A DNA stretch of 64,000 nt, taken from sequence record ON286972. The stretch is one strand, 5' to 3'. This DNA comes from Escherichia phage A4. A program made the position numbers and the translations under genes. The notes beneath the pieces are model-generated. The model was not told the origin of the DNA, made no database searches, and saw nothing but the letters and a program-made list of their open reading frames with translations. Each line of letters begins with the position of its first letter. Within the stretch, counting starts at the first letter, position 1. Below, in pieces: positions 14,601 to 61,138 of this stretch.

Positions 14601-14633
14601 CAAAAGAAAAGGAGCCATTGGCTCCTTTTTTTA
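14601..14633. terminator. bidirectional rho-independent terminator
   Basis: aaaagaaaaGGAGCCattGGCTCCttttttt at a convergent junction; T-runs on both strands. Confidence 0.7.
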
Positions 14634-15095
14634 ATATCTATATGGTAGACTATTGACAAATTGTGTACCAGCGTTTATACTTTCCCATAAAGAATAAAAA
14701 TCTTTCATCAAATTGACATTTAATAATGTATTTTTAGCTCCAGGGTGAAGAGGTTTAGGCCATGAGCCAATTTTAACCCAAGCATATCCAGAGCTTTCCT
14801 TATTGAGAATAGGAACAAACTCATTTTCAACAACAACAACGAAAGAATAATATTTGAACTTACCATTCTTAGTACAAAATACATCAAAGGGTATAATATC
14901 AATTATATCAGGTAACGAATCTCCCAATTCTTCTCGTATTTCACGATGCAAAGCTTGCAAAGGGGATTCGTTGTATTCGAGTTTTCCACCAACAAAAGCC
15001 CAGTTGTTTGAATAGGTACTGCTTTCAGATCTAAGATTGAGCATCATATGACCAGTACTTTTAGATAAAAATATTGCTCCTACTGCCTCATTCAT
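14631..15095 (-). CDS. Nudix hydrolase
   Basis: Complete Nudix box GKLEYNESPLQALHREIREELGD (GX5EX7REUXEEXGU). Confidence 0.8.
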   Translation of the reverse strand: MNEAVGAIFLSKSTGHMMLNLRSESSTYSNNWAFVGGKLEYNESPLQALHREIREELGDSLPDIIDIIPFDVFCTKNGKFKYYSFVVVVENEFVPILNKESSGYAWVKIGSWPKPLHPGAKNTLLNVNLMKDFYSLWESINAGTQFVNSLPYRY

Positions 15096-15104: not shown

Positions 15105-16448
15105 TTATTTGTCAGTGAATGATATCTTCCAATATCCCTGACGGTATTGCGACATAATACTCTTATGCCATTTGAATTTTTCATTGTATCTATAATAGTG
15201 ACTGTCTTGACGATTGTAAACATAATTAAGTACTGAAGACGGTTCAATTAGTTCAGCACCTTCATTTGTTATTTTGAACAAATAATTTGGTGGAATAACT
15301 GTGTCTTTGTAAATTAAATCTCTTGCACTATTATTTACATAATATTGTTCAGGTATAGCTGAATACAATTCTGCATCTTTGGATATCAACGCTATGATAG
15401 AGTAATCGACAACATAATTACTACTATCCAATTGAACAACAATCTTGTTTGCCTTATCTTCGTGTCCCATTGATATTATAGTTCCACGCAAAGGATTACT
15501 TTCTTCGATTGCTTGTTGGAATTTAATACCGAGTTTCTTATCTTTGTATTCAGGCTCTAAGTACTGAATATATTTCTCCCAAGAATATATACCACCGTTG
15601 GATGTTCTCTCACTCATACTTTGACTTACCAATGTAAGGACATAAGTATCTGCGTTTTTATCCGATGCTTCTGTTATTTCTTCAACTTTGATGCATAAAT
15701 TTTTAGGAGTGAATACATCAGTAATTATATCCTGATAGTTTCCTATTTCAAAATCCAATTCATCACGACCACTTTCTATATTAGTTGTTATCTGTTGTAT
15801 AAGCTTTGGCTTTTCAACGATAGCAGGTAATGATAACCATATAGTTGTTTCAAATGTAAGAACCATAATATCAAGTTCAGTATCAGTTCCTTGTGGAAAT
15901 CCACGAGTACTGAATTGACAGTCAATTAATTCCACATCACTTTGTGCCGTCCAGTCTAATGGGTTATCAGATAGTTGCAATTGAACACTTGGAGCAAACA
16001 ATGTACTGATTTGCTCATATAATTCCATTTTTGTTTGCAGTTGTGTAACCCATATGTTTAAATCAAATGTAAATGTCCAAGGTACAGGGTTATGTCTTGT
16101 TATTTTATACTGCTTATCCAACTCAGGAGTGAATTCATTTGGTGCAGGGGACTTATTTGTCCCCATAATAATAGTTTCGTTCGCATTTGAACGAATACTT
16201 TTACGATCCAATTTCAATTGATTCACACTAATAGTCATGATCGGTGCAGTAGGCATTACGTTCTCACTGTTACCATTGATAACAGCAGCAGCCAAACGTG
16301 AAATATCTGCATATCTACATGGAACTTGCTTGTATCTTGGTTTACCTTCGTCATCAACTCCATTTTGTACTTGAAACCCACCAAAAATCCTGATAAGATG
16401 TTTCAGTACTCGACGAAATTGACCATCATAGTAGTATTCTACTTTCAT
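15105..16448 (-). CDS. hypothetical protein
   Basis: 447-aa ORF; start overlaps the stop of the upstream gene (ATGA), suggesting translational coupling. Confidence 0.35.
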   Translation of the reverse strand: MKVEYYYDGQFRRVLKHLIRIFGGFQVQNGVDDEGKPRYKQVPCRYADISRLAAAVINGNSENVMPTAPIMTISVNQLKLDRKSIRSNANETIIMGTNKSPAPNEFTPELDKQYKITRHNPVPWTFTFDLNIWVTQLQTKMELYEQISTLFAPSVQLQLSDNPLDWTAQSDVELIDCQFSTRGFPQGTDTELDIMVLTFETTIWLSLPAIVEKPKLIQQITTNIESGRDELDFEIGNYQDIITDVFTPKNLCIKVEEITEASDKNADTYVLTLVSQSMSERTSNGGIYSWEKYIQYLEPEYKDKKLGIKFQQAIEESNPLRGTIISMGHEDKANKIVVQLDSSNYVVDYSIIALISKDAELYSAIPEQYYVNNSARDLIYKDTVIPPNYLFKITNEGAELIEPSSVLNYVYNRQDSHYYRYNEKFKWHKSIMSQYRQGYWKISFTDK

Positions 16449-17953
16449 TCTTTATCCCCTTTTGCACGGTATAGAGTGTTTGGTTTTGCCGCGTCGTGTA
16501 ATGGGACACGATTAGGACTGTTAACGAACTCGGTTAGGGCTAAATCTGCACCTTCCCACGGTTTACGTCCACCATAATCAAAGATTACCCAAGATTTTTT
16601 AACTTCACTGTATTCCCAAAGAGTTACAGGGTTGTAATCCGTGCGATAGAAGTATTCACCATCAGTAGGATCAGATGGGAACGTGTCCCCTTCTTGCACA
16701 GTGCCGCGAGCAGGTGGAATTTTAGGTCTTGAATCTTGTTGCGAGTCTATGTTACCATACACACTGTTAGAACTGAAAGGTAAGTTAACATGTGTATCTG
16801 GTGGAACTTGCCATGTACCATCTAAGTACTGGTACATTGTTGGTTTTTCATATTGAATGTAAAAATCCTCAGCATTTTTAGGTGGAACGTCACCAGTTGA
16901 GTATTCAACGTCACAATTGAGCCACTTTTTGAGAGATTTGTCATATTGATACAGGGAATATCCAGTAACATCTGAATCATTCTCTTTATAGAAGAAATCA
17001 CCATCAGATGGTTTACGTGGAAACGTTGTTCCATACGGTACTGAAACATTTTCCCATGAATTGTTGACTTTCTCTTTCAGTACTGGTAAAGTTTTCTTCA
17101 AGAAGTACATTTTGTTAGCTGGTTCTTCTGGGAAGTCATATCCATTAAGAACAAACTTTGACAAATCGGTTGTATCTGGTCTATCATCGTATATATGTTC
17201 ATTTGTGAAGTGGATATAAGGGACTTCATCATCAGCTTGCATTATAATACGGTTCATGATATCCATTTCGTTATCATAACTGCTGTTTGGTGAAGAACCA
17301 TTGGAACCACTGTTACCATTACCATTATTTGGGTCATCTGGGTTGTCTGGATAATCATTATTAGTAAGTAAGTCCGCGTACTCAGGTGAATCGGTAATAG
17401 GTTTGACACGAATTTTGTAAATGTGATGTTGCCATGTTGCAGAGTAACCTTCAGATGTTCTAAAGCCGTCCTGAACTACGTAAAAACGGTTTAAACCTGA
17501 ATCTTTACCAACAACATCGAAATCACGAAGGTTTGGAAGTTCAATTACATCACCAGGCATAATTTTTCTTCCCAATCGCTGCATCATTGTGTTATAATGA
17601 ACTGTAATGTCCATTGTGTTGAAGTTAAAGAACAACCCAGGAATTTTTAAATCAGGTGTTGCTTCTTGGACTTGATAAACACAACTAAGTGTGATAGCCT
17701 CTAGATTGTAACTACGATTTGAGGTTTCACCAAAAATTAGGTCACCAATACTTGACGCAGCGGAACCATCAGTGATATAATCACCACCGTAAGAATAGTC
17801 GTTAGGAGTTGTTGATGGTTTAGCACCGACAAAGGCATAAAGCCACATGTCTACGCCACCAATATTGTATTGTTCAGCAATGGCAGAATCTATGAATTTA
17901 TAATCATTGGTTCTACCTTTTTTCCACATTCTGTATGCCATTTTGTTCTCCAA
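16445..17953 (-). CDS. hypothetical protein with internal repeats and Asn/Gly-rich linker
   Basis: 502-aa ORF; repeated FPxxPSDGDFFY...W units and an NNDYPDNPDDPNNGNGNSGSNGSS low-complexity segment; GGAG Shine-Dalgarno. Confidence 0.35.
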   Translation of the reverse strand: MENKMAYRMWKKGRTNDYKFIDSAIAEQYNIGGVDMWLYAFVGAKPSTTPNDYSYGGDYITDGSAASSIGDLIFGETSNRSYNLEAITLSCVYQVQEATPDLKIPGLFFNFNTMDITVHYNTMMQRLGRKIMPGDVIELPNLRDFDVVGKDSGLNRFYVVQDGFRTSEGYSATWQHHIYKIRVKPITDSPEYADLLTNNDYPDNPDDPNNGNGNSGSNGSSPNSSYDNEMDIMNRIIMQADDEVPYIHFTNEHIYDDRPDTTDLSKFVLNGYDFPEEPANKMYFLKKTLPVLKEKVNNSWENVSVPYGTTFPRKPSDGDFFYKENDSDVTGYSLYQYDKSLKKWLNCDVEYSTGDVPPKNAEDFYIQYEKPTMYQYLDGTWQVPPDTHVNLPFSSNSVYGNIDSQQDSRPKIPPARGTVQEGDTFPSDPTDGEYFYRTDYNPVTLWEYSEVKKSWVIFDYGGRKPWEGADLALTEFVNSPNRVPLHDAAKPNTLYRAKGDKE

Positions 17954-17982
17954 AATAAATCGGTATATCTGTATTTACTAGG

Positions 17983-18010
17983 TAGACAAACTGAAAGAAT
18001 GTGATATAAT
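17983..18010 (+). promoter_or_regulatory. sigma70-like early promoter upstream of clpA
   Basis: TAGACA-N16-TGaTATAAT (extended -10), ~40 nt before the clpA AGGAG/ATG. Confidence 0.5.
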
Positions 18011-18049
18011 GATTTTAATGACAGTGAGAAGAATCACATAGGAGAGAAC

Positions 18050-20335
18050 ATGAATTTAACACAGCTATTCAAAAGCAGCGACGACCTTGCAACCTCTATG
18101 GGTCATACTTTCTTGACAATCGATCACATCAGTGCTACAGTGCTGACAGTGGATAGCATTATTGATGTATTTGGGACAATGAACGTTGACGCAACGAAAG
18201 TGCGTGATCGCTTGATTGAATATCTGAAAAATACCAATGTTCCACACGCACCACGCAGCACTATGGGGGAAGAAGTTAATCGCACTACACTAATCGTCAA
18301 TCGTGTAATGCAAGAACTATCTAAGAAATCTGTCATCGAACAACTCAAACGTGACGATTTCTCAATTGATGCATTCTTTGTACTGTTTGAATGTTTGTCA
18401 TTCCCAAACACTGCATTAGAAGCAGCATTGTTGGAAGAGGGTGTAACTCGTACTGAAGCGGCCCGTACTCTTCAGAAATATGTAGAATCTCTTGATTCTG
18501 AAATTAACCTACAAAGCATCGCTGATGAACCTACTGGGGAGAAAAAGGTGGCTCAACAACAACCTGCATCAAAACAGAAATCAATCGAAGATTACACGAC
18601 CAACCTAACACAGTTGGCTAAAGATGGTAAACTGGACCCAATGATTGGTCGTCAAAAAGAACTGGACGCACTAATTGAAACTCTGGCTCGTAAAACTAAG
18701 AAGAATGCTATTCTGACTGGTGAAGCTGGTGTTGGTAAAACTCAGATTGTTGACGGTCTAGCACAAGCCATTGTTGATGGTAATGTACCAGAACATCTAC
18801 AAAACATTGAGATTTTATCTCTTAACGTTGGTGCACTAACTGCTGGTACTAAGTATCGTGGTGAATTCGAAGAACGTATTGATAATCTTCTCAAAGAACT
18901 GAAGAAACGTGAAAATACAATCGTGTTCATTGACGAAATCCATATCATGGTAGGTGCAGGTTCTGCAAGCAACGGTTCAATGGATATGAGTAACATGTTG
19001 AAACCAGCACTATCTCGTGGTGAGATTCGTGTAATCGGTGCAACTACTTATGATGAATACCGTAAAAACATCGAGAAAGATAGTGCATTGACTCGTCGTT
19101 TCATGAAAATTGACGTAGTTGAGCCAACTATTGAAGAAACTCGTGCGATTGTAAATGGTCTGCAAGGTACATATGAGAAATTCCATAACGTAACTTTCAG
19201 TACTGAAGCAATGGATGCGATTGTGTCTTTGAGTGATAAGTTCCTGAAGAACAAACACTTCCCAGACAAAGCAATCGACCTTATGGATGCAGCAGCAGCT
19301 AAGAAACGTTCACGCGATGAATCTGATAATGTGATTTCACTACGCACAATTCAAGAAGTTGTTGCGGGAATTGCAAACTTGGATATCAACGTAGTAGCTT
19401 GTACTGAAACTGAACGTATGAAGTCACTACCAGCAGCACTTCGTAGCCGTGTATTCGGTCAAGAAGAAGCAGTGGAGAAATTGGTTGATAACGTAATGGT
19501 TGCACGTGCAGGACTTCGTGAGAAAGCAAGTGTTCAGGGTGCATTCATGTTTGTCGGTCCGTCTGGTACTGGTAAAACTGAAATCACTAAAGCACTAGCC
19601 GATGCAATGGGTTCTGAACTGATTCGCTTCGATATGTCTGAATTTTCACAAGAACATACCGTTGCAAAACTAATTGGTTCACCTCCTGGCTATGTTGGTC
19701 ACGATACTGGTAATGGTCTGCTACTCGACAAAATTGAGCAATTCCCGAATGCAGTTCTACTGCTGGACGAAATTGAAAAAGCACACCCTAAAGTACTGCT
19801 AACCTTCCTACAGGTTCTGGATGAAGGTCACCTAACTGGTTCACAGGGTAAAACTGTATACTTTAACAACGTAACAGTTATTATGACAACCAACTTGGGT
19901 GCAGCAGATGCAAATAAACGTAGTCTGGGTTTGAGTGGTGGTGAAACAGCACAGGAGAAGGCAGTGAAAGCTTTCCTACCACCTGAATTCCTAAACCGTA
20001 TCGATAGCATCGTGAAGTTTAATGAGCTATCCAGTGAAGCTATCCAGAGCGTTATTGATAAGTTCATGGCTGGTCTAAATGAGCAAATCAAAGAGCGTGG
20101 CGTGAAAGTAACACTGACTAAAGCGGCACGTGAATGGTTAGAAGCAAATGGTGTTCAGCCTGGAATGGGTGCACGTCCAATGAAACGTACAATCGAGCAG
20201 AACATCCGTGTTCCTCTGGCTAAAGAAATGCTATGCGGTTCACTGGTAAATGGTGGTAACGTAACATTTGATGTGATTAACGGAAAGTTGGGTATCAAAC
20301 CAAAACGTCAAGTTAAAACCCCATCTGTAGTGTAA
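18050..20335 (+). CDS. clpA: ClpA-like AAA+ unfoldase (Hsp100/Clp ATPase, two AAA+ modules)
   Basis: Walker A GEAGVGKTQ and GPSGTGKTE; Walker B IVFIDEIH and LLLDEIEKAH; N-domain present; no ClpB middle coiled coil; LGL tripeptide (KRSLGLSGG) at the ClpP-docking IGL-loop position; reads close to E. coli ClpA along its length. Confidence 0.9.
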   Translation: MNLTQLFKSSDDLATSMGHTFLTIDHISATVLTVDSIIDVFGTMNVDATKVRDRLIEYLKNTNVPHAPRSTMGEEVNRTTLIVNRVMQELSKKSVIEQLKRDDFSIDAFFVLFECLSFPNTALEAALLEEGVTRTEAARTLQKYVESLDSEINLQSIADEPTGEKKVAQQQPASKQKSIEDYTTNLTQLAKDGKLDPMIGRQKELDALIETLARKTKKNAILTGEAGVGKTQIVDGLAQAIVDGNVPEHLQNIEILSLNVGALTAGTKYRGEFEERIDNLLKELKKRENTIVFIDEIHIMVGAGSASNGSMDMSNMLKPALSRGEIRVIGATTYDEYRKNIEKDSALTRRFMKIDVVEPTIEETRAIVNGLQGTYEKFHNVTFSTEAMDAIVSLSDKFLKNKHFPDKAIDLMDAAAAKKRSRDESDNVISLRTIQEVVAGIANLDINVVACTETERMKSLPAALRSRVFGQEEAVEKLVDNVMVARAGLREKASVQGAFMFVGPSGTGKTEITKALADAMGSELIRFDMSEFSQEHTVAKLIGSPPGYVGHDTGNGLLLDKIEQFPNAVLLLDEIEKAHPKVLLTFLQVLDEGHLTGSQGKTVYFNNVTVIMTTNLGAADANKRSLGLSGGETAQEKAVKAFLPPEFLNRIDSIVKFNELSSEAIQSVIDKFMAGLNEQIKERGVKVTLTKAAREWLEANGVQPGMGARPMKRTIEQNIRVPLAKEMLCGSLVNGGNVTFDVINGKLGIKPKRQVKTPSVV

Positions 20336-20369
20336 AAAGAAAAGGAGAGCCATTGGCTCTCCTTTTTTG
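20336..20369. terminator. bidirectional rho-independent terminator, near-copy of 14601-14633
   Basis: aaaagaaaaGGAGAGCCattGGCTCTCCtttttt at the clpA / giant-gene convergent junction. Confidence 0.7.
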
Positions 20370-23300
20370 TTATTGAATATTCAATAGATTTTCTATATCA
20401 GTTCCAGTAATTGACAATCCATTTCTGAATGTATCTAATGGAATTGGTGGATAGAAGTTTTGATATTGAGTAAACTTATCAATGCTCCCCAAGTTCAATC
20501 CATTAAAGCTATAAGACGTTCCTTTAGTAAAATTATGTTCCGCACTATACATGACACCACGTAATAGACGGTCAGTGTTTCTTACCTGAACCTTCTCATA
20601 TCCAACCACAATAATATCATCATTCTGTGCCGCAGCACCTGACAGTACTGAATCAGTAATGATATATGGGCTTATTGAACGAGGTTTAGCAACATAAGTG
20701 ATTGCCTCATCTTCAACGGTTGTAATGTTAATTACACCACATCCTACTTCTTTGATGAACGTGTTATTGACCACAGGTTGTGCATACTGCCACACGCGAT
20801 CATAACTTAGTACTGGTTGAATAACATCAACATCGTATTCAAATACAGTGATTTCAATACCATCAGTCATTTTAGCTCGTACTAGTTCACCCAGGACACC
20901 TTTACCAGAGATTGGCTGATTGTAACCATTATCAATTGTAATACCATCAACTTCAAAAATCTCATTGGAAACTAACCACAAATCAATTTCATCAGGTGTG
21001 ATACCATCATTGAATTTACCACCATATAATGTTTCGTCATAGAATACTTCATAGTTCAATGCATGTATACTGTAATGACGATTATTTTCATATAGTTTAA
21101 GTCCATTGTCATCAAACTCAGGGTCTTGGAAAGTGCGGATTCTAACTAAGTTCATTGATAATGTATAAAAACGCTCATTACTTTCACGCTTAGTTATACT
21201 ATCAAACATTAACACTACACCATTACTATCAACCAACTCTACGTTACCATTACCCAATACACGTACTGTGTATAGTTTTGGTTTTTTAGAGGATTGGATT
21301 TTACTAGCACTTAATATAGTTACCCAGTTACCGTCTTGGAATCGTACATAATCTTCACCATCTGGCGTGAAAATCATAACCTTATCACCATCTTTCAAAC
21401 CTTCATCGTGAACCTTGATTTCAGTAATTGTTTTAATTTCTGAAATTGGGAAGAAGTATTTTTCAGATTCTTTGAACACATCTTTACCCATATTCTCAAT
21501 GACAATATCATATGATGGAATACTTACAACTGCTTCTGACATATTGTAAGGGTTTTGTACGATCATACCCTCAATCTGGAATCTACTTGTGTCTTTTAAT
21601 TGCTCTTGAGCAACTTCATCGAAACCGTAACCATCAACAGTGAAACGTAATTGTGCCATTGTTCTTCCTGATGGGTTTAGTTCAGAAATGTCGATGATAT
21701 AAGGATCAATCTCACTATCTTTAACTTCCCATTTAATGGATTTGGTTTGTGATTCCAATGCCAAGTTATCGAATGCATTCATATCATTGAAATATTTTGC
21801 AGTATTGATACTTTCCAGTACTTCAACATATGCAGAATACATTGGATTATTCTGGTCTTGTGGTAAATCATTTAAATCAATTTCAGCCAATACAACTGAT
21901 TCTCCGGTTGTTATGAATAAGTCTTCCATGAAATCAGATATGCTGTAACTTTCAGGAATCGGTAGATATTCACCTGCCGCATTCACAACATACACATATT
22001 TCCTTGGCATCATAACAAAAGCATACTTATCAACTGCACGATTACTTAAGATTTCTCTAGCAACATAATAATGATCTAGAATATTCTTATTAAATGTTTG
22101 TCGCATTGCAGATAACACATGAACGGTATCAGAATAATAACGGTCATTTAATGTGGTATCATACTTGTAGCAATAAACACCATATTCTATCTCTAGTATA
22201 TTACGAACTTGGTCTTCATTAGTAAACTCAGGGTGATTTTTCTTGATCATATCGACATATTTTTCATATAATTCAATACTAATCTCAAAATAACCATAGT
22301 TGTAATCACTACTTGCACTGAACCCAAAAGGTAGGCGAGTATTAGGATTATCATTATAGTTCGTACCCTTAAATGGACAACCAATCTCATTAGAAACCAT
22401 GTCATCAGATATATTCTTAAACATTTTCACACGAGTTGCTAATGTATTGTATTGAATATATTTCTTAACGTCTTCTAAAATGTTACTGTTGTTTGTATCA
22501 GCAGTTACCTGCTCCAAATCAGCAGTAAATTGGTCAGTCATTGCAATATCAGTTGAATGGGCTTTATACCATGCATCAATTCCTTTAATGACACCATTAC
22601 TAATATCCAAATCTGAATATTTGGTAGTCATTTCAATACCAATCTGTGAAATTAAGGTATTATTATCATATTCAGGGAATGTATAAACATATCTCTGTAA
22701 TTCATAATCATTTCCTATATCCGAAGCATTAGATTGATACTTACTATTGGTTGATTTCAACTCATCAATTGTATAATTACTATCATACGGGTCACATTGA
22801 ATATTATCATAATGCATAATAACGTCGATTTCTTGGAATCGTCTGTTAGGTGTGATAAAGTCACTTGGTAGTGAACCAATCTTTTCCCAACGTTGGGTTA
22901 CGTCATTAAATTGTGCATATTCTAAATCCCAAATGTCTTTTTCAGTCTTAACCCACACACCATCAACTAAAATATAGCCATCTGGGTCAAGGTCATTACT
23001 GATACCATTAATCAAATCATCATCAGAAGTTTTCTGTTCTATTTGAGAACGGATTTTGGTTCTGTATGGTTTAACTTCTTCGAAGTACTCAACAATTTGA
23101 TTAATCAAGTTGTCATTTGAGTAGTTTTGTACGAGAGATTGTTCTAAACCTACAATATAGATATATGAGGTTTTGAATACCCAGTCAACAACACTTTGTT
23201 CAGTGTGTACGTACTTAACCATATCAAAAACAATATTACTTTGATATAAGTTGAATGAATTTTTCAACAACGCTAACGCATTACGAACGTTAACCTCATG

Positions 23301-26300
23301 AGAATTCAAAGAACCATCATCATTGTAAACATTGTACCCAGAATATAACATTGAATTCAATTCAACTGTACTATTCTCACGTCCAATAGCTTTCCAGTAT
23401 ATATTATTACGAGATGCAGTCTTGATGTATAATGTCCAAACACCATCACTATCAGTTACACGGATAATATCACCAATTTGGTAATTTTTAGTGTTTGCGT
23501 CATCTAAACTAACTTCTTGTGTATATTCAGTGTTGCTATCGTATCCAGTATCGTACCAATCAGCCAGATTCCAGTACTGGGTCATATCCAAAGATGTACC
23601 AAGTGATTCTATGAAGTCAGCTTGTTTAATCATCTTGTGTTGACCTTCACCTCTATTTTCTAGAGTGATTGTAACAGTACTACCAACTGCACTTGGACTG
23701 TTCATCAATTGAATGTATCCATTTGGATCAATGTGAACAAAATATACTGAACTAGAAGATAATGGTGCTGGTAGAGTTCCGATGGAACTTACAAATACTG
23801 CATCATTCTCTTTAAAGCGGTTATCTTCTGGTGCAATTACCAATTCATTGTTAAATGATAGAACACGGAATGTAATATCATTTGGGTTCATTTTTAATGT
23901 TTTCACATTAAACACATCATTCATAACAACACTGTTAGTTGTGATGTTCTGTGAACGGTAAAAGTTATTTGCACTCTCAACAAACGCACGACGAGCTTCA
24001 ATGACATTCTGGAACCAAGTTTTATTAGAACCTAAACCAGTTTCAACTTTAGGATAAATTATTTCATTTACAACACCAGTTGAAGTAGTTTCTTGACCAA
24101 TTAGTGAGTTCCATAGTGAATTCCAAATATCTGGGTTAAAGTCATAACTATCACCTTCTTTACAGAGTTGATATTGATCATGCTTCAGTACTTCGATATT
24201 GTCATTTCTATATGAAATTGTCAAAATGCTTGTATCATCATTAACTTCAAATTGCATATTACTTAGAATGAAACTATTTTCATTAATAGGTGCAAACCAA
24301 GGAACATTCAATTGTGTTGGATCTTGAATAATACGTGCAATATCAGTACAAGACTTACTACGAGTAGTCATTGGTGGAACATAAATGGTATTACGAACCC
24401 AGAAATAATAACGAACTACATATGTATCAGTGATTGGATCATATTCCATAGATGAACTGTAGTTCTCATCCATTGCAATCCCACTTGGGAGATACATAGT
24501 ATTGTTTTTATTTTTATTGGCTTGTTCTGCACAATATTTTTCCCAGTTGTATGGTTCTACTGGTGAACTAACCCATTCTAGAACATCAATAACACTGTGT
24601 GGTAATAATTTACCCCAATTATAACGCTTATATTCATTAGTTGCTTTTACATCAACGTTACCATCCTCATCAAAGATTGGACGGGTATAATCCAGATAGA
24701 ATGCAGTGCTAGTGTTCCACCACACTTTACCTACCTTTTCAGCACCCCATGCTTGTAATAGTTCACCGTTACTGCTATACTGTGCTGGGTCCACTGGAGA
24801 GATGAAATCAACATCTTGCATTGCAACCCCAGGAATAACACCGTTAATTGGGTCAAACACATTCAAATACAATGCAGTAATGTTTGTTCTTTCATCATAC
24901 GTAGTAGGACGGTCAAACAAAGTGCTTTCAGGTGCACTGTAACTATATTTTTTAGCAATATATTCATCGCGTTCTTGTTGAGTACTAAATCTACTAACAT
25001 AACGATACAAACGTGGTGCTGATTCTACTGTTGAAAAGTCAATAGTAATGGAAGTGTCAAATGGCACTACCATAACTTTTGGATCTAGTCCAGAAGTGTA
25101 GTATTGGCATTCATCACGTAGGGCATCAGGCATAAAGTTTGTTTCATCAACAAAATAATAATAATCACCATCATTGAGTGGGATATCATCAGACAATAGT
25201 ACTTTACAATATTGCTCAGCATATGGATCTTCACTTTCAATTGGTGTAATAGAAACCATTGTAATACCAGTATCTACTAAATCATACACATTCCATTCGT
25301 TATTGATATCTTGGAACATCCAAACAGATGTTGGGATTTTACCAGAATTATTCATATAACTAATGCGGTCTTGATTTGCAGTTTCGTAATTTAATGTGGT
25401 ATAATCAATTTCATCTAGGGTTACTGGTCCAATATTAGGTAATTGGATATTCTCACTTCTCCCATTACGCATAGGGAATGAGAATTTACCTTTTGGACGA
25501 CTAATCCAGCGTGAATCTTCACCAATTTCACCATAATATACAATTTCATTCTCAGATTCAACCTTATCGGAATAACGGTCAAATGTAATCATTTGTGGTT
25601 GTTGTTTAAACTCATTATTAATTAGTTTAAATTGAAGATTTTTAACACCATCAATGTTACCATAAGAACCAACACGGAATGCCCATTCTTGTAATGCTTT
25701 ATACTCATCAGTATTATATGATTTAGATACACGTAATACTTTTTCTAGTACTTGGTTAGTGCCTTTATCATGAATAAAACCTTTATAGAAATCAATTCGA
25801 CCAGGCTCATTAGTGATCATACGTTGTAAGTAATCACGAGACTGATAGCCAATTAAGTGGTTTGAAAGTTCATTTAATTGAACATCACTAACTGGGGTTT
25901 CATTATCATAATACTGTTGGAAATTAGACACCAAAGTTTCAAATGATGGTAATGTACCAGCTTCTAGGATGATAAATCCAGGAGCTTGTAAACGTCCAGA
26001 CCATGAACCAGTGATATATCCATACAATTTAATCAATTCTTGAACTGCACCATAGGTTGGTTCATAGATATAATCACCGAAAATCGTCTGATCATCAAAA
26101 ATAACAGCATGTTCATAAGAACTGATACTTAAACGAATAAGTGCTATGCGTTTATTTGATTCTTCAGTAGTTCTTACCGTGAATATGTTACCAATACGAG
26201 ATGTTTCAATCTCAAATTGACGTATACCTTGGTTTGAATCATCTAATAATGACCAAACACCACCACTATTTTGTGCAATTGACTGAACTGAACCAAAATC

Positions 26301-29300
26301 TGTACCAAATTTAGCATTAATTGCTGATGGGGTACAAGAAATGAATTCACCAGTACTCAATTGTTGTTGACTCCAGATTAAAAAGTCTTTTGCAATTGTA
26401 TTCCAGTCCTGTTGGATACCAGATTCATCAACTTCTTCAAAAATCCAACCATGTTGCTTTAGATACTCACCATAACCACAAATAAATGTGTAAACTTCCT
26501 GGAAGGTATTCATCAAAGTTCCGTAAGGAATGGATGCATCATTTTTCCACTCATTATAATGAACAACATTACGATTATCAACTTTCAAAGATACTTTATG
26601 ACCGTTTTTAACAGGCAATTTATAATTGAATGTTGCAGAAACTAAATCATAACCATCAATTTGGTAAGCACTACCAGTCCAAGTAATTTTAATTGCACTC
26701 ATTTGCTCATTTCTAATATTATTAGAACGAACTAAACCGATAGATTGGTTTTCTTGTGAAATTAGACCAGTTGCTTCTGATGTAAATGTTAATTGATCAG
26801 CTTTAGTGAATCCACCTAGTTTATGACCCACATTAATATGAGAAGAACGAACAATTTCACCGTACTTAGTTGTAATATTTTTGTTTTGATACATCAAATA
26901 ATCACTAACAATCATTTGATAACCAATAACGCGAGTACTATTCTCACCATGTACGATTGTATCACTATTAAAGTTCAAACGTAAACGAGTATCACCATAT
27001 AAAAACTGTGGTTCATTACCAGATACAGTTTTTAATGTATTATTTCGGGTATCCCAGAAATAGTTTGTGAACTGTGCAGGTTTAGCTTTGAATAACATCA
27101 ATAATTCATCATATGCAAACATTGCTGTGTTCATATAAGTGAATTCCATATCACCCATATCACCATAAGTCCACGGTTCAGCACGATGATTTAGACTACC
27201 ATATACAAGACCTAAAACTTCAGGAGCAATGTACTCAATGACGCAAATATCAACACCAGATGCTGTCTGCTTGCCTGTTTTAGTGATCTTAAAGGGTTGT
27301 GTACCAAAACGTTTGTACTTGTCATATTGACCTTTACGTGCACCAAACAAGATAGTACCCGTTGAGCTATCACCTTTCTCGTTACCAACGTCCCATAACC
27401 CACTAGGAACCATGTTACCTTGTTCGTTGATAACTAATGCCTCATAAACATAAACAACATCACCATCACGTTCGCCAACTTGAACTGCGGTAGGTTCATA
27501 TTCCTGGTTCCACCAAACTGGACGTTGGGAGAAACCAAACATTTCCCACGGATGGGTTGCTGGGCGATATGTACCAAATTGGTCAGTGTAGATTGCTCGC
27601 CATGAACCACGGGCTGCTATTTGTGTTTGTTGACCATTAACCATATAATGTGTTCCAGTATAGTTCCAAGTCATCCAGTTATTTGGATCATAATCATGTG
27701 AACTGTTACTGATACCATTGGTTGCGATGAAGTTAATATAACCACGTAGTAGTAAGTTCTTTTTCTCTTCGTCATTATACTCTGTATCTCTGAAATACGG
27801 AGTCGGGAAAAGATCAGAAGCATCTAGCTTAGGTTGGTAATCTTCATCTTTGAAAATAACATCAATACTATTGAAAATTCTATTTTCTAACTCATATATA
27901 ACGTCATCCATTTTATCAACACCGTTTATTACACGGTATGCTTTAGTGATTGCACCTGTATGACTGATGTTATAACAGCTTTGCTTACTACCAGCATTCA
28001 AAAATGTTGCTTTTTCTGGAACGTGTGCTTTCAAAATACCCAAAAACTGTGGAGTTGGTGGTACAAACGCACGAATGAAGCCAGAAGTACTTGCTACGTT
28101 ATCATAATAGAATGGGAAAGTATTATCATGACCCATATTAATAATTGTTAGAATTTCATCAACAATATTAGAAGCATTATTAGCTAAGAAGTTTGCTGGG
28201 TTCTCATTGTACAAACGGATCATTTGTGTATTGAACTTGTTTACGAAACGGAAATATTCGGATTGCATAAACAATACAGATTCAAATAGGTCAATATCTT
28301 CATTTGCAGAATGTGCCATTAACGGTAGCATTGATGCTTCGTTTTGAATAATCTTAGTACCAACGGAGTTATCCACTAAACCTTTAGACAAACGATCTTC
28401 GTAGTCGTTGAAATCATCAACGGAACCACTGGTGATATTCTTTTGAATGATATCTTTAAAATGTAATGTAAAATTACTTTGGTTGATATAAAGAATATTA
28501 TCGTTGTATGGGTTATTTTGTAAATTGATTGGGATTTCATATGCACCCAACTCTTTATTTGGTACTTCAGTACTGCTGTATGTTCTAATTTGAATCACTG
28601 ATTCATCTTTAAGAGCTACATCTTCACCTAAAGTGATGCTTTGAACCTTGTTATTATATACATGACGTGTATAATCGGTTACATCAACTCCATCAACTTG
28701 AATTTCAATGATTTCGGTACTCTTACCATCAATAATTTTCTGGGCTAATTCAAATGTGCGATTGAAACGTTCACTTTGAATACCTTCACCACTAATTACA
28801 TGCCAATCCATATAGGTTTGACGTTCTTCTTTGTAATATTGATAGGTACGATCCACTTCAGTAACATATGCATACATACCTTCTAATGGATTTTTAAAGT
28901 TTTCCATTTCGAATACAGTATTGAATACACGATACATATCAGTGTGTTCTATTTGTGGCGTTTGTTTAACGAATTGCTTTGAATCTTCCTTAGAACGAAC
29001 CCAATCGGTCTTAAGGTGTAGTTCATTATCTTTACCAACTACATTATAGTAGTACAATCCAGAAATTTCAGTTTCAACACCCAAATGATCATATGTATAA
29101 CGAACACTTTGTAGGAAGTTTTCGTACATATAGTAATTATAATTACCTAGTTCGATATTATAACCATATACTTTATCAGTGCCGTAATTATAGTTGATTT
29201 TAAAACCAAATAGGGATGAACCAACAAAATTACTTGATGGATAAATTGTAGAATCATTTAATTTAAAACCATCACGGTCATATAATTGGAATTGTGGGAA

Positions 29301-30347
29301 TACGTTTACACCAGATTTTGTTTGTGCTCTAATCCAGTTAACACCATTCCAGTACATGGATGTATTTTTATATACATTACCATCACGCACCAAAATAACA
29401 TCACCATTATGTGGCTCACCACTTGGGCGGTCGTCAGTTTCTTCATCTGGGTCCAATGCTAGACCATATGTGCGAGAACCATCTTGCATTTTCTTAATAA
29501 AAACTTTATAAATGCGGTTGTTTTCACCAACGTTACCTATACTAGTGAAAAGAATACGCATACCATCTTGTGGAATAATCCCGTCAATACGAATACCATC
29601 ATTTACGTCTTTTTGGACGATATCTTCTGGTTTAATTGTATCAGAGAAAAGATCCACAACACCACGGAAATGTGTCCCGTAGTTAATTAATTCGATATTT
29701 TTATTGTACTCGATGATTGGTGCTTGTGCACGAATAAAACGAGTATCTTGTGTCATGTCAGCAGTTAGTACTGTTCCATCTTCTAGTGTTTGACCAATAG
29801 TATACCAAAAGTTCTGTAGGGACCATGTGTTTCCGTTATCAGCACCACGTTCCATAACAATAAAGTCAGGAGTTGTGATACCATAACTATTTTTACTATC
29901 CCACAAATAGGAACTATAGTTGGTCATTTTGTTTGGGTTAATTGGCGGTGTCCAAGAATAGAACTTACCAGAAAATAGACGGCTCTCGTTTGAAGTTAAC
30001 GTGCCGTAGTGTTCCATGTAGCCAACCAAATCATCATAAAATTGAAGCGAACGAATGCTTGTGTCATCATTACGAGACACATATGCTGTTGATAATTGAT
30101 ATAGCTGACGTTCAACGGTTGCTTCGTCAAGGAAAATCTTAGCAGATGCAGCAGGAGAACCCATATCACCAATATATCCATCAACGATTTCATTATCCGC
30201 TGGATTGAACCATTGTTGAATTACATCATCACTAACCTTTTGAATGTCTTCTAAGCCTTGCATCCATTCAGGTAATCTTTTAATGAAAAGCTTCTGTTGT
30301 ACTGCTTCTGCCGTTTTAGTTGGTAGAAACTTAAAATTATTAGTCAT
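20370..30347 (-). CDS. giant baseplate-associated structural protein (at the T4 gp7 / P2 gpI position)
   Basis: ~3325-aa continuous ORF with no low-complexity repeats. Start moved from 30377 to the ATG at 30347, which has a GGAG Shine-Dalgarno 8 nt upstream; the 30377 ATG has none. Assignment by position after the gp25 and J-like genes only. Confidence 0.5.
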   Translation of the reverse strand: MTNNFKFLPTKTAEAVQQKLFIKRLPEWMQGLEDIQKVSDDVIQQWFNPADNEIVDGYIGDMGSPAASAKIFLDEATVERQLYQLSTAYVSRNDDTSIRSLQFYDDLVGYMEHYGTLTSNESRLFSGKFYSWTPPINPNKMTNYSSYLWDSKNSYGITTPDFIVMERGADNGNTWSLQNFWYTIGQTLEDGTVLTADMTQDTRFIRAQAPIIEYNKNIELINYGTHFRGVVDLFSDTIKPEDIVQKDVNDGIRIDGIIPQDGMRILFTSIGNVGENNRIYKVFIKKMQDGSRTYGLALDPDEETDDRPSGEPHNGDVILVRDGNVYKNTSMYWNGVNWIRAQTKSGVNVFPQFQLYDRDGFKLNDSTIYPSSNFVGSSLFGFKINYNYGTDKVYGYNIELGNYNYYMYENFLQSVRYTYDHLGVETEISGLYYYNVVGKDNELHLKTDWVRSKEDSKQFVKQTPQIEHTDMYRVFNTVFEMENFKNPLEGMYAYVTEVDRTYQYYKEERQTYMDWHVISGEGIQSERFNRTFELAQKIIDGKSTEIIEIQVDGVDVTDYTRHVYNNKVQSITLGEDVALKDESVIQIRTYSSTEVPNKELGAYEIPINLQNNPYNDNILYINQSNFTLHFKDIIQKNITSGSVDDFNDYEDRLSKGLVDNSVGTKIIQNEASMLPLMAHSANEDIDLFESVLFMQSEYFRFVNKFNTQMIRLYNENPANFLANNASNIVDEILTIINMGHDNTFPFYYDNVASTSGFIRAFVPPTPQFLGILKAHVPEKATFLNAGSKQSCYNISHTGAITKAYRVINGVDKMDDVIYELENRIFNSIDVIFKDEDYQPKLDASDLFPTPYFRDTEYNDEEKKNLLLRGYINFIATNGISNSSHDYDPNNWMTWNYTGTHYMVNGQQTQIAARGSWRAIYTDQFGTYRPATHPWEMFGFSQRPVWWNQEYEPTAVQVGERDGDVVYVYEALVINEQGNMVPSGLWDVGNEKGDSSTGTILFGARKGQYDKYKRFGTQPFKITKTGKQTASGVDICVIEYIAPEVLGLVYGSLNHRAEPWTYGDMGDMEFTYMNTAMFAYDELLMLFKAKPAQFTNYFWDTRNNTLKTVSGNEPQFLYGDTRLRLNFNSDTIVHGENSTRVIGYQMIVSDYLMYQNKNITTKYGEIVRSSHINVGHKLGGFTKADQLTFTSEATGLISQENQSIGLVRSNNIRNEQMSAIKITWTGSAYQIDGYDLVSATFNYKLPVKNGHKVSLKVDNRNVVHYNEWKNDASIPYGTLMNTFQEVYTFICGYGEYLKQHGWIFEEVDESGIQQDWNTIAKDFLIWSQQQLSTGEFISCTPSAINAKFGTDFGSVQSIAQNSGGVWSLLDDSNQGIRQFEIETSRIGNIFTVRTTEESNKRIALIRLSISSYEHAVIFDDQTIFGDYIYEPTYGAVQELIKLYGYITGSWSGRLQAPGFIILEAGTLPSFETLVSNFQQYYDNETPVSDVQLNELSNHLIGYQSRDYLQRMITNEPGRIDFYKGFIHDKGTNQVLEKVLRVSKSYNTDEYKALQEWAFRVGSYGNIDGVKNLQFKLINNEFKQQPQMITFDRYSDKVESENEIVYYGEIGEDSRWISRPKGKFSFPMRNGRSENIQLPNIGPVTLDEIDYTTLNYETANQDRISYMNNSGKIPTSVWMFQDINNEWNVYDLVDTGITMVSITPIESEDPYAEQYCKVLLSDDIPLNDGDYYYFVDETNFMPDALRDECQYYTSGLDPKVMVVPFDTSITIDFSTVESAPRLYRYVSRFSTQQERDEYIAKKYSYSAPESTLFDRPTTYDERTNITALYLNVFDPINGVIPGVAMQDVDFISPVDPAQYSSNGELLQAWGAEKVGKVWWNTSTAFYLDYTRPIFDEDGNVDVKATNEYKRYNWGKLLPHSVIDVLEWVSSPVEPYNWEKYCAEQANKNKNNTMYLPSGIAMDENYSSSMEYDPITDTYVVRYYFWVRNTIYVPPMTTRSKSCTDIARIIQDPTQLNVPWFAPINENSFILSNMQFEVNDDTSILTISYRNDNIEVLKHDQYQLCKEGDSYDFNPDIWNSLWNSLIGQETTSTGVVNEIIYPKVETGLGSNKTWFQNVIEARRAFVESANNFYRSQNITTNSVVMNDVFNVKTLKMNPNDITFRVLSFNNELVIAPEDNRFKENDAVFVSSIGTLPAPLSSSSVYFVHIDPNGYIQLMNSPSAVGSTVTITLENRGEGQHKMIKQADFIESLGTSLDMTQYWNLADWYDTGYDSNTEYTQEVSLDDANTKNYQIGDIIRVTDSDGVWTLYIKTASRNNIYWKAIGRENSTVELNSMLYSGYNVYNDDGSLNSHEVNVRNALALLKNSFNLYQSNIVFDMVKYVHTEQSVVDWVFKTSYIYIVGLEQSLVQNYSNDNLINQIVEYFEEVKPYRTKIRSQIEQKTSDDDLINGISNDLDPDGYILVDGVWVKTEKDIWDLEYAQFNDVTQRWEKIGSLPSDFITPNRRFQEIDVIMHYDNIQCDPYDSNYTIDELKSTNSKYQSNASDIGNDYELQRYVYTFPEYDNNTLISQIGIEMTTKYSDLDISNGVIKGIDAWYKAHSTDIAMTDQFTADLEQVTADTNNSNILEDVKKYIQYNTLATRVKMFKNISDDMVSNEIGCPFKGTNYNDNPNTRLPFGFSASSDYNYGYFEISIELYEKYVDMIKKNHPEFTNEDQVRNILEIEYGVYCYKYDTTLNDRYYSDTVHVLSAMRQTFNKNILDHYYVAREILSNRAVDKYAFVMMPRKYVYVVNAAGEYLPIPESYSISDFMEDLFITTGESVVLAEIDLNDLPQDQNNPMYSAYVEVLESINTAKYFNDMNAFDNLALESQTKSIKWEVKDSEIDPYIIDISELNPSGRTMAQLRFTVDGYGFDEVAQEQLKDTSRFQIEGMIVQNPYNMSEAVVSIPSYDIVIENMGKDVFKESEKYFFPISEIKTITEIKVHDEGLKDGDKVMIFTPDGEDYVRFQDGNWVTILSASKIQSSKKPKLYTVRVLGNGNVELVDSNGVVLMFDSITKRESNERFYTLSMNLVRIRTFQDPEFDDNGLKLYENNRHYSIHALNYEVFYDETLYGGKFNDGITPDEIDLWLVSNEIFEVDGITIDNGYNQPISGKGVLGELVRAKMTDGIEITVFEYDVDVIQPVLSYDRVWQYAQPVVNNTFIKEVGCGVINITTVEDEAITYVAKPRSISPYIITDSVLSGAAAQNDDIIVVGYEKVQVRNTDRLLRGVMYSAEHNFTKGTSYSFNGLNLGSIDKFTQYQNFYPPIPLDTFRNGLSITGTDIENLLNIQ

Positions 30348-30380
30348 GTATAGGACTCCATAAATTCGTTCATTCATTTG

Positions 30381-40822: not shown

Positions 40823-40839
40823 TTGAAGTATTTATAGGT

Positions 40840-40867
40840 GGGACAAAGCTGATTTTAGTGCTATAAT
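40840..40867 (+). promoter_or_regulatory. sigma70-like promoter upstream of gene 55
   Basis: GGGACA-N16-TGcTATAAT. Confidence 0.5.
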
Positions 40868-40919
40868 ATTAGCGATGGCACACGGATTGTGCCTATTGGT
40901 CATTACATGGAGAGTTACA

Positions 40920-45446: not shown

Positions 45447-45469
45447 AATGTGCCTTAGATCTAAGTTAG

Positions 45470-45486
45470 TTTATGAAATATTTATG
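45470..45486 (-). promoter_or_regulatory. late-promoter-like motif before the endo VII-like gene
   Basis: Minus-strand CATAAATATTTCATAAA ~25 nt upstream of ATG 45446. Confidence 0.4.
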
Positions 45487-45543
45487 AAATACATTCCTAA
45501 GAAATTTTTAAGTACTTTTTTTATAAAAAAGATTAGATATTTT

Positions 45544-45571
45544 GAGACACTTTTAAATTGCGTGCTATAAT
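45544..45571 (+). promoter_or_regulatory. sigma70-like promoter firing into the ORF-free region
   Basis: GAGACA-N16-TGcTATAAT; same spacing as the clpA and gene 55 promoters. Confidence 0.45.
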
Positions 45572-45577
45572 GTTTCA

Positions 45578-46064: not shown

Positions 46065-46149
46065 TTATCTTCATTCCCCTGCGGGGGGATGAAATATCCT
46101 CAACAAATCCCGTCAAGTATTAAATCATTTAAAGTTCTTTATAATTATA

Positions 46150-46245: not shown

Positions 46246-46307
46246 AAGAATAAATCTTTTAAGATCATAATTTCTTTCATCTACTTTGTAAGTAAAAATC
46301 CAAAAAA

Positions 46308-61110: not shown

Positions 61111-61138
61111 GGGACACATTGAGAAGTACTGATATAAT
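61111..61138 (+). promoter_or_regulatory. sigma70-like promoter upstream of the polymerase block
   Basis: GGGACA-N16-TGaTATAAT. Confidence 0.45.

Follow-up and report, generated by a model that had tools for sequence, protein, structure and literature searches.

The closest described system to the gene reported here is ClpA of Escherichia coli, of ClpAP/ClpS (structures 1ksf, 6w1z, and 7uiv), in which an N-domain is followed by two AAA+ modules (D1 and D2) with no middle domain, and whose gene adjoins clpS. ClpB and Hsp104 likewise have two AAA+ rings and a Clp_N-type N-domain homologous to those of phage ClpA, but a middle domain is present in ClpB, and ClpB is without a ClpP-docking loop. 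Among phages, ClpA has been described as conserved in the RaK2-like group (PMC6102473; PMC7824862). This set, which includes 121Q gp581, phAPEC6 gp246c, RaK2 ORF069, CBB_235, and the GAP32 protein, corresponds to PHROG 4871, and the annotation in 121Q and others is 'ClpA-like'. PA5oct and Atu_ph07, which belong to the same group of jumbo phages but are more distant, encode ClpA (~40% identity), ClpP, and ClpS together (PMC6102473), and Phosso also has ClpA, ClpP, and a ClpS-like protein. PA5oct and Atu_ph07 differ from the phage studied here in encoding ClpX as well (with FtsH in PA5oct and ClpB in Atu_ph07), and in PA5oct-type genomes the Clp genes lie within ~20 kb (coordinates from phage Cassandra). 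A literature search found no published experiment on a ClpA-like protein in any phage.

We analysed a 64-kb stretch of DNA (the window) from a RaK2-like (Asteriusvirus-type) jumbo coliphage, which carries a clpA-like gene within the tail/baseplate block (Table 1). As the earlier note had observed, the gene runs opposite to its structural neighbours: a gp15-like tail protein, a structural protein, the 3335-aa virion protein, and a gp6-like baseplate wedge are all encoded on the minus strand. The lineage in the window has ~82 per cent DNA identity to the nearest deposited phage genomes. Its ClpA is 60–86 per cent identical to those of other RaK2-like phages and equal to them in length, with the same flanks and the same divergent orientation, and the arrangement of promoter and terminator is common to the window and these relatives.

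Table 1. Positions of the clpA-like gene, its signals and motifs, neighbouring genes, and related promoters. Nucleotide positions are those of the window unless a contig is named; aa, residues of phage ClpA.
Feature	Position	Strand	Details
Virion structural protein gene	16445..17941	-	Leftward neighbour; ATG at 17941, following the gene call on the near-identical contig
Late-type motif GTAAATAC	17971..17978	-	T4-like TATAAATA / CBB ATAAATA class; faces the leftward structural gene
clpA promoter	17983..18010	+	TAGACA 17983-17988, 16-nt spacer, TATAAT 18005-18010
Shine-Dalgarno AGGAG	18040-18044	+	ATG 5 nt downstream; kept in relatives
clpA-like CDS	18050..20335	+	761 aa plus stop, ATG start
N-domain	~aa 1-150		Long linker to ~aa 190
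D1 AAA+	~aa 191-450
D1 Walker A GEAGVGKT (aa 224-231)	18719..18742	+
D1 pore loop KYRG (aa 268-271)	18851..18862	+
D1 Walker B FIDEIH (aa 293-298)	18926..18943	+
D2 AAA+ plus small C-terminal domain	~aa 451-745
D2 Walker A GPSGTGKT (aa 503-510)	19556..19579	+
D2 pore loop GYVG (aa 547-550)	19688..19699	+
D2 Walker B LLLDEIEKAH (aa 570-579)	19757..19786	+
LGL tripeptide (aa 626-628)	19925..19933	+	Position of the E. coli ClpA IGL ClpP-docking loop
Hairpin terminator	20338..20368	.	14-bp stem, -22 kcal/mol, z=-5.86; between convergent clpA and 3335-aa gene
3335-aa virion protein gene	20370..30377	-	Convergent neighbour
Late motif TATAAATA	40829-40836	-	Back to back with the promoter of the gp55-like gene
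Class promoter GGACA-N13-TGCTATAAT	40841..40867	+	Upstream of gp55-like late sigma gene
Third class promoter	45545..45571	+	~0.9 kb downstream without substantial ORF
Fourth class promoter	61112..61138	+
ClpP gene P0007 (231 aa)	232,957-233,652 of AAREHQ020000002.1	as clpA	~97 kb upstream of clpA

The product of the gene and E. coli ClpA align without interruption across 725 residues, with 42 per cent identity (51% in D1, 44% in D2). Among NCBIfam models the best is that of ClpA, TIGR02639 (762.6 bits, unbroken over residues 3–741), and in the PDB the top match is to E. coli ClpA 1ksf (E = 1.7e-179; residues 17–741 align unbroken to 20–734). The match to PHROG 4871 ('ATP-dependent protease') is likewise full length (E = 1.3e-302, 1007 bits, residues 2–755 against profile positions 11–760 of 764). 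Because the ClpB, ClpV, and ClpK/G models each match only as two separate stretches, the phage protein has no middle domain, and its uninterrupted alignments to the ClpA model and ClpA structures show no coiled-coil between D1 and D2. ClpB structures also align in two pieces that skip the middle (M) domain, the coiled-coil expected of a ClpB/Hsp104 disaggregase. The scores fall under the NCBIfam equivalog cut-offs (762.6 against 993.15 for TIGR02639; 653.5 against 1350 for NF008263), and the protein is therefore a diverged homologue rather than a certified equivalog. Compared with 121Q, dN/dS is ~0.08 in all three regions, with synonymous sites close to saturation. Judged from its sequence, phage ClpA is homologous to ClpA over its full length, is under strong purifying selection, and has all catalytic and pore-loop motifs intact. 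The architecture described in the earlier note (an N-domain, two AAA+ modules with intact Walker A/B motifs, and no middle domain) is thus borne out, and the family comparison that it proposed gives ClpA as the best match, not a ClpB with a middle domain.

Residues of the Walker A and B motifs, the KYRG and GYVG pore loops, the sensors, and the Arg finger are invariant in the alignment of phage and E. coli ClpA. At the ClpP-docking loop, SLGLS (aa 625–629) aligns to E. coli SIGLI, confirming the LGL reported there before; the phage loop differs in being two residues shorter and in having LGL for IGL. The general ClpP-docking motif is [LIV]-G-[FL], which the LGL in D2 fits. The nearest relative compared has IGM, and others have IGV, LGM, or IGG (EJP2), with Gly alone invariant. 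Five of the six phage lineages compared keep a loop of ClpA length whose tripeptide is hydrophobic-Gly-hydrophobic. The range of tripeptides among close relatives, LGL included, could reflect weak constraint at this site. The N-domain is diverged, with 22 per cent identity to that of E. coli and a single-sequence match to Pfam Clp_N below the cut-off (E = 0.0015), and the linker between it and D1 is longer than in E. coli. A profile built from six phage N-domains matches structures of the N-domain of E. coli ClpA best (E = 1.4e-6, first repeat).

In DNA this rich in AT, a generic scan for sigma70-like promoters did no better than chance: 19 kb gave 92 sites where 85 ± 10.5 were expected. The clpA promoter was therefore assessed by conservation and by a class-specific pattern. 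Its sequence (ggTAGACAAACTGAAAGAATGTGATATAAT) includes an extended −10 element, TGaTATAAT (18002–18010, with the TG at 18002–18003), and falls in a phage-specific class, RGACA-N13-TGnTATAAT. It is kept upstream of clpA in vB_Ec-M-J, 121Q, EJP2, 7t3, CBB, and Yen9-04, which represent several genera; the exception is RaK2, where a displaced TTGACA-N18-TATAAT is found. For the clpA orthologue of CBB, Table S6 in PMC5259590 gives the promoter as Porf_235, 'Promoter 1', and the promoter in the window shows the CBB Promoter 1 pattern of a −35-like TGrrAC(A/G), 13 nt, and TGnTATAAT. A CTGAAAG immediately upstream of the clpA −10 was rejected as the CBB TGAAACG element due to its wrong spacing; that element aligns with GTAGACA.

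The clpA promoter stands back to back with a late-type motif in which GTATTTA is invariant across eight relatives aligned. Its counterpart in CBB, Porf_234 (ATAAATACGGTATA), is on the strand of the leftward gene (PMC5259590). Late motifs of the RaK2-like clade take the looser form ATAAATA or GTAAATA, and the window shows no excess of the exact T4 late motif (four found against nine expected). At the other end of the gene, the terminator could act bidirectionally, because its stem is flanked by an A-tract and a T-tract. By its sequence, clpA forms a transcription unit by itself, bounded by a sigma70-type extended −10 promoter and a hairpin terminator of its own.

Four RGACA-N13-TGnTATAAT sites occur in the window against 0.04 expected, for a class that is partly post hoc, having been drawn from the same sequences. 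One of them precedes the gp55-like gene, whose orthologue EcMJ_325 carries the annotation 'sigma factor for late transcription' and whose promoter is equivalent to Porf_244 of CBB (PMC5259590). Another faces an ORF-free stretch (45.4–46.4 kb) in which tRNA and Rfam searches gave nothing credible. The CBB Promoter 1 class was named 'divergent RpoD-like' and lies upstream of non-structural genes; the equivalent sites precede clpA, the gp55-like gene, and DNA-synthesis genes (PMC5259590). In vB_Ec-M-J, class sites number none in kb 1–50 and 15 in kb 50–200, and classic TTGACA promoters cluster in the terminal repeat, where the class is absent. Our search found no published transcriptome for Asteriusvirus or Alcyoneusvirus. 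Since the class precedes DNA-metabolism and gp55-like genes and is absent from the early terminal repeat, clpA is probably expressed before the late genes, likely in the middle period. The gene had earlier been called early-expressed: the sigma70-like, non-late character of its promoter holds and is conserved, but 'early' is too specific, and pre-late, probably middle, expression fits better.

ClpA homologues were matched in 196 phage records, and orthologues occupy the same position in ~70 sequenced relatives. The family is already known, being both annotated and discussed in the literature, and a phage ClpA of this kind is not rare as had been supposed. In RaK2-like phage records we found ClpA in 69, ClpP in 69, and a ClpS-like gene in ~71, each tallied separately. 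An IMG/VR scan with the ClpA protein returned 121Q and three distant contigs only, and the clpA region had no match in E. coli complete genomes. Among Escherichia-phage records, a ClpX match was present in ten only, against 33 with ClpA and ClpP, so a phage ClpX is probably not general in Asteriusvirus. Its absence as a general feature would likely leave ClpA as the phage-encoded partner of phage ClpP. EcMJ_295, an 'ATPase', was considered as a phage ClpX and set aside, as it gave a marginal AAA match only.

Using tblastn with E. coli ClpP, ClpS, and ClpX as queries, we detected none of the three genes in the window, as previously stated for clpP and clpS; the ClpX query gave only a weak match, which fell within clpA. 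The picture of an orphan ClpA arose because 64 kb of a 359-kb genome was in view. Evidence for ClpP and a ClpS-like protein comes from outside the window, from relatives and from contig AAREHQ020000002.1 (358,987 bp; assembly GCA_011911785.2), which shows 600/601 identity to the window where the two were compared and carries a gene for an identical ClpA. On this contig there are also genes for a ClpP, P0007, and for a protein with the ClpS fold, P0025 (181 aa), the latter at ~56.2 kb; a putative second ClpP-like gene is placed ~3.6 kb downstream of that of P0007. The search for a cognate clpP beyond the window therefore found one, and clpA is not an orphan in need of a host protease. P0007, reached through cluster members of vB_Ec-M-J ClpP, has a Pfam match of 7.7e-42. 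The orthologue EcMJ_201, in the same 90%-identity cluster, matches CLP_protease over its full length (1.3e-41) and keeps the Ser-His-Asp triad, which was checked on that protein. ClpP is 93–100 per cent conserved within Asteriusvirus, which implies that it is in use. Several of the residues that we take to form the hydrophobic pocket of E. coli ClpP are changed in phage ClpP, which would fit either co-evolution with phage ClpA or no docking at all.

The ClpS-like protein is more diverged from its E. coli counterpart. The 90% cluster of the vB_Ec-M-J ClpS-like protein has no member from the lineage in the window, and P0025 was found by a homologue search. Its single-sequence Pfam score is below the cut-off (20.3 against 23), while a profile of its homologues matches E. 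coli ClpS at 2.2e-7. An AF2 model of the ClpS-like protein (pLDDT 80.5) superposes on ClpS structures with TM 0.88–0.92 and an rmsd of 1.1 Å, and the protein carries extra N- and C-terminal segments. At N34, D35, D36, H66, and M40, which we take to be the N-degron pocket of E. coli ClpS, the phage consensus reads D, D, P, N, and A, and the canonical pocket is not kept. It is therefore doubtful that the protein recognizes N-end-rule substrates, and its role as an adaptor is presumed. The ClpS of PA5oct and Atu_ph07 retains more of the canonical pocket residues. Unlike clpS and clpA of E. coli, which adjoin, the three phage genes are dispersed over the genome, 80–100 kb apart and in no operon. 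The phage clpP promoter (tGTAGACAAATACGAACACTGTGATATAAT) is near-identical to that of clpA.

Taken together, phage ClpA probably serves as the unfoldase, or ATPase, subunit of a ClpAP-type protease that the phage itself encodes and that is conserved in RaK2-like jumbo phages. It would form double-ring hexamers, made before the late genes and probably in the middle period, whose LGL loops would dock on the phage's own ClpP and thread unfolded substrates into it. The diverged ClpS-like protein may act as an adaptor or modulator through the ClpA N-domain. Candidate substrates would be proteins of the host, early proteins of the phage, or giant structural proteins that have misassembled. What remains of interest is why strong selection has maintained ClpA, ClpP, and a modified ClpS-like protein throughout this group of giant coliphages. 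One hypothesis from the promoter type shared by clpA and clpP is that the two are co-expressed before the late genes, and the altered pocket of the ClpS-like protein suggests non-canonical substrate choice. Both ideas are testable by standard phage genetics and Clp biochemistry.

More tentatively, the three genes may make up a self-contained, re-targeted degradation machine that is switched on in mid-infection. The pocket-less, extended ClpS-fold protein would deliver specific proteins, perhaps early proteins of the phage or host factors for defence or housekeeping, and docking would have co-evolved so that the machine is insulated from the host Clp network.

It is rather unlikely that phage ClpA instead works independently of ClpP as a chaperone or assembly factor, remodelling virion components such as the 3335-aa protein or translocating proteins during tail/baseplate assembly. 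Roles of this kind were put forward by Iyer et al. for the ClpA and ClpX of jumbo phages, and translocase or assembly roles are suggested in PMC7824862. The gene sits in the tail/baseplate block beside the giant gene, a position kept in at least five genera, and the variable tripeptide, including IGG in EJP2, hints at a relaxed need for ClpP contact. However, the whole structural module is syntenic across the clade, so position alone says little, and the structural genes around clpA use late-class promoters, to which that of clpA does not belong. The hydrophobic-Gly-hydrophobic loop is also retained in most of the lineages compared, and phage ClpP co-occurs with ClpA.

The earlier note had suggested docking on host ClpP for want of a phage clpP. 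That phage ClpA redirects the E. coli protease, with or without phage ClpP too, now seems improbable, although LGL is conservative with respect to IGL and fits the general docking motif, E. coli ClpP is available from the start of infection, and the presumed pocket residues differ between phage and E. coli ClpP. Its premise is false for the near-identical genome and for the relatives searched (where ClpA and ClpP tallies are equal), clpA shares its promoter type with phage clpP, and the strong conservation of ClpP in Asteriusvirus speaks for use of the phage's own protease. A decoy role, with phage ClpA or the ClpS-like protein titrating host ClpS, ClpP, or adaptors and so shutting down host proteolysis, could draw on the altered pocket (D36 to Pro, H66 to Asn, M40 to Ala, against residues we presume canonical) and the extra terminal segments of the ClpS-like protein, but is very improbable, since a passive decoy needs neither intact ATPase and pore-loop motifs nor purifying selection, and the ClpP orthologue keeps its catalytic triad.

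Virion proteomes bear on the probable ClpAP-type assignment in both directions. In its favour, the ClpA orthologue is not in the virion proteome of phAPEC6, though products of neighbouring genes are, and the orthologue of the 3335-aa protein (gp245, 381.9 kDa) was seen in phAPEC6 virions by mass spectrometry. Against it, ClpP has been reported from virion mass spectrometry by one peptide in CBB, with an ESI-MS/MS flag in PA5oct. With ClpP seen in virions and ClpA not (phAPEC6), the two proteins may have partly separate roles.

The ClpA-type unfoldase gene of the window (clpA) has the position and 761-aa size first read from the sequence, and its ClpA architecture with two intact AAA+ modules was borne out. 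Pfam places AAA, AAA_lid_9, AAA_2 and ClpB_D2-small domains in the product. The comparison of Clp families proposed in the earlier note favored ClpA: the top NCBIfam model (TIGR02639, 762.6 bits) aligns in a single stretch over residues 3-741, whereas the ClpB, ClpV and ClpK/G models align in two pieces only. The closest solved structure, E. coli ClpA (1ksf, E=1.7e-179), also aligns without interruption. An alignment of the window ClpA, five phage orthologues and E. coli ClpA shows all Walker A/B, KYRG, GYVG, sensor and Arg-finger residues to be invariant, and sets SLGLS of the window protein opposite SIGLI of E. coli ClpA. These two proteins share 42 per cent identity (N-domain 22, D1 51, and D2 44 per cent). 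Pfam recognizes the N-domain only weakly (E=0.0015), but the top matches of a profile built from six phage N-domains are N-domain structures of E. coli ClpA (E=1.4e-6). Because its score falls under the NCBI equivalog cut-off, the product is a diverged ClpA homologue and not a certified equivalog. Judging by dN/dS (~0.08 vs 121Q, with synonymous sites near saturation), it is under strong purifying selection in every region. GC content around clpA is 41.3 per cent, compared with 33-38 per cent on either side.

Features of the window, of contig AAREHQ020000002.1 (which encodes the identical ClpA) and of the relative vB_Ec-M-J
Feature	Sequence	Position	Strand	Details
MutT/NUDIX hydrolase gene	window	14631-15095	-	beside gp15-like gene
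Promoter module, copy 1	window	17942-18049		rightward gene clpA
clpA promoter	window	17983-17988, 18005-18010	+	from sequence; -35-like TAGACA, 16-nt spacer, TATAAT preceded by TG
Higher-GC segment	window	18001-20000		clpA region
clpA CDS	window	18050-20335	+	761 aa; AGGAG 5 bases 5' of ATG
Terminator hairpin	window	20338-20368		14-bp stem, A-tract and T-tract either side; -22 kcal/mol, z=-5.9
Promoter module, copy 2	window	40823-40919		rightward gene gp55-like late sigma gene
ORF-poor segment	window	45447-46354		~0.9 kb
Third class promoter	window	45545-45571	+	
ClpS-like gene (P0025)	AAREHQ020000002.1	56,155-56,700		immediately following Dda-helicase and IF3-like genes
ClpP gene (P0007)	AAREHQ020000002.1	232,957-233,652	same as clpA	~97 kb upstream of clpA
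Direct terminal repeat	vB_Ec-M-J, L006	1-21.5 kb		
Second ClpP-like gene (EcMJ_208)	vB_Ec-M-J, L007	35301-35909		202 aa

The clpA region has ~82 per cent DNA identity to Asteriusvirus jumbo coliphages (e.g. BF17, CMSTMSU, and vB_Ec-M-J). ClpA orthologues with 60-86 per cent identity occur in sixty-nine records of RaK2-like phages, from Escherichia, Salmonella, Klebsiella, Cronobacter, Pectobacterium, Erwinia, Yersinia, Serratia, and Xanthomonas. In all seven related genomes compared, clpA stands in divergent orientation between gp15-like/structural genes and a giant virion gene. Along its whole length the product matches PHROG 4871, and the 121Q orthologue (gp581) is annotated as 'ClpA-like protein'. 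Most RaK2-like phages highly conserve ClpA (Attai et al., PMC6102473), and the AAA+ chaperones of jumbo phages include ClpA and ClpX (Iyer et al., PMC7824862). Given these records, annotations and papers, a ClpA homologue is not new in phages, and not the rarity that the earlier note had supposed; clpA was known before, as a conserved gene of the RaK2-like jumbo phages.

The tail/baseplate block holds another non-structural gene, for a MutT/NUDIX hydrolase, which is also kept in 121Q, phAPEC6, and vB_Ec-M-J. INPHARED does not contain the window lineage; its nearest entry has ~82 per cent DNA identity. The lineage does occur as complete jumbo-phage contigs of 345-359 kb within assemblies with proteins labelled Escherichia coli by NCBI, among them AAREHQ020000002.1 (GCA_011911785.2), AATHYQ020000001.1 (GCA_012813795.2), and JAYLON010000004.1 (GCA_036253495.1). 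These occurrences point to a carrier state or pseudolysogeny, or else to phage that came along with cultured isolates.

Searching the 64-kb window by tblastn with E. coli ClpP, ClpS, and ClpX sequences, we found no credible clpP, clpS, or clpX, as had been noted for the first two; the only match of the ClpX query, a weak one, fell within clpA. In vB_Ec-M-J, the closest relative with annotation, a gene labelled 'head maturation protease' lies 87 kb upstream of clpA. Its product matches Pfam CLP_protease over its full length (1.3e-41), is 35.5 per cent identical to E. coli ClpP, and conserves the Ser-His-Asp triad; it is a bona fide ClpP homologue. This phage ClpP is found in sixty-nine RaK2-like records, with 93-100 per cent identity within Asteriusvirus. 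A variant (P0007) is encoded on AAREHQ020000002.1 (358,987 bp), which carries the exact window ClpA and is identical to the window at 600 of the 601 bases compared. A genome near-identical to the window thus encodes a cognate phage clpP at another locus. The earlier note had named such a gene as grounds for refutation, and it counts against the proposed use of host ClpP.

A second, highly diverged ClpP-like protein (EcMJ_208 in vB_Ec-M-J; forty-seven phage records) is encoded 3.6 kb downstream of phage clpP, behind a promoter of clpA's class. It matches CLP_protease at only 4.4e-4, has a hydrophobic N-terminal segment, and leaves the catalytic Ser and Asp unaligned. It evolves fast, with ~52 per cent identity between Asteriusvirus subgroups vs 96 per cent for ClpP.

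A ClpS-domain protein of 177-181 aa appears in seventy-three records (two of them Acinetobacter-phage contigs) and is annotated in 121Q as 'protease adapter protein ClpS' (gp48). The copy on the window-identical contig, P0025, is marginal in Pfam as a single sequence (20.3 bits vs 23); a profile of fourteen homologues reaches E. coli ClpS at 2.2e-7. An AlphaFold2 model (pLDDT 80.5) fits ClpS crystal structures with TM 0.88-0.92 and 1.1 A rmsd. At positions D36, H66, and M40, which we take to belong to the N-degron pocket of ClpS, the phage protein has Pro, Asn, and Ala; E79 is kept, and there are additional N- and C-terminal segments. If the protein serves as an adaptor, N-end-rule specificity is improbable. 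In relatives (e.g. OQ718158.1, NC_025447.1, NC_071039.1), PHROG-style annotation calls ClpP a 'head maturation protease' and gives 'ATP-dependent protease' for the ClpS-like protein, so that keyword searches miss the ClpA/ClpP/ClpS trio. A T4-type prohead protease is encoded separately in the same phages.

By homology, then, clpA belongs to a ClpA/ClpP/ClpS-like set that the phage encodes. The observation in the earlier note stands, and its interpretation is only partly supported. Most economically, a working ClpA hexamer would partner the phage's own ClpP, and the ClpS-fold protein may work via the ClpA N-domain. Phage ClpA could possibly dock on host ClpP instead. The docking tripeptide varies within the clade (LGL, IGM, IGV, LGM, IGG), with Gly alone invariant, and several residues that line the E. 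coli ClpP pocket are changed in phage ClpP; either co-evolved docking surfaces or loose constraint would fit. A ClpP-independent assembly role is also possible. The phAPEC6 orthologue (gp246c) was not detected in the virion proteome amid detected neighbors (gp244, gp245, and gp248), so ClpA is probably not a virion component. Phage ClpP itself was seen in purified CBB virions (CBB_104, one peptide, 4.5 per cent coverage), and that of PA5oct (EST35_0272) is flagged ESI-MS/MS. A decoy role is a further possibility. ClpX was matched in ten Escherichia-phage records vs thirty-three for ClpA and ClpP, and so seems not to be present throughout Asteriusvirus. In the literature searched we found no published experiments on what the set degrades, or when.

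As to timing, sigma70-like sites in 19 kb are near the chance count (92 vs 85 +/- 10.5 expected), so one match says little, and we therefore tested conservation. The -35-like element and TGnTATAAT 5' of clpA are kept in vB_Ec-M-J, 121Q, EJP2, 7t3, CBB, and Yen9-04; RaK2 has a displaced TTGACA-N18-TATAAT. On the opposite strand, the late-type motif (A/G)TAAATAC toward the leftward structural gene is kept in eight of eight sequences. Downstream, the terminator hairpin separates clpA from a convergent 3335-aa gene.

The pattern RGACA-N13-TGnTATAAT has four sites in the window, including the clpA promoter, vs 0.04 expected, a comparison with some circularity, as these sites had been used to refine the pattern. 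Another site precedes the gp55-like late sigma gene and, like that of clpA, stands back to back with a late motif. Phage clpP has a promoter almost identical to clpA's, a finding that holds for vB_Ec-M-J and for the window-identical contig (tGTAGACAAATACGAACACTGTGATATAAT). The class has fifteen sites in kb 50-200 of vB_Ec-M-J and none in kb 1-50, where the terminal repeat and small ORFs lie; the terminal repeat has about a dozen classic TTGACA-N16-TATAAT promoters. By RNA-seq in PA5oct, terminal-repeat genes represent early transcription. In CBB, the equivalent class (TGAAACG-N13-TGnTATAAT) precedes DNA-synthesis genes, the gp55-like gene, and the clpA orthologue (Porf_235), and structural genes are preceded by ATAAATA (PMC5259590). 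Since a late sigma gene must precede late expression and shares clpA's promoter type, the 'not late' half of the earlier reading is well supported on sequence grounds. The 'early' half is not, the class being absent from the terminal-repeat region; clpA expression would be pre-late, probably middle.

The near-identical early promoters of the vB_Ec-M-J terminal repeat stand before small ORFs and are of a different class (TTGACAAAGTATCTTAGTACTGTATAAT type) from clpA's. In both copies of the back-to-back module, a late-type motif ((G/T)A/TAAATAC) toward a leftward structural gene abuts a rightward RGACA-N13-TGnTATAAT promoter; CBB has the same pairing at Porf_234/235 and Porf_243/244. Downstream of the third promoter of this class in the window runs a ~0.9-kb segment without a substantial ORF, in which we found no tRNA or credible Rfam family. 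At the matching position, vB_Ec-M-J keeps the promoter, likewise with no plus-strand gene annotated, and the segment might encode a non-coding RNA or a small peptide.
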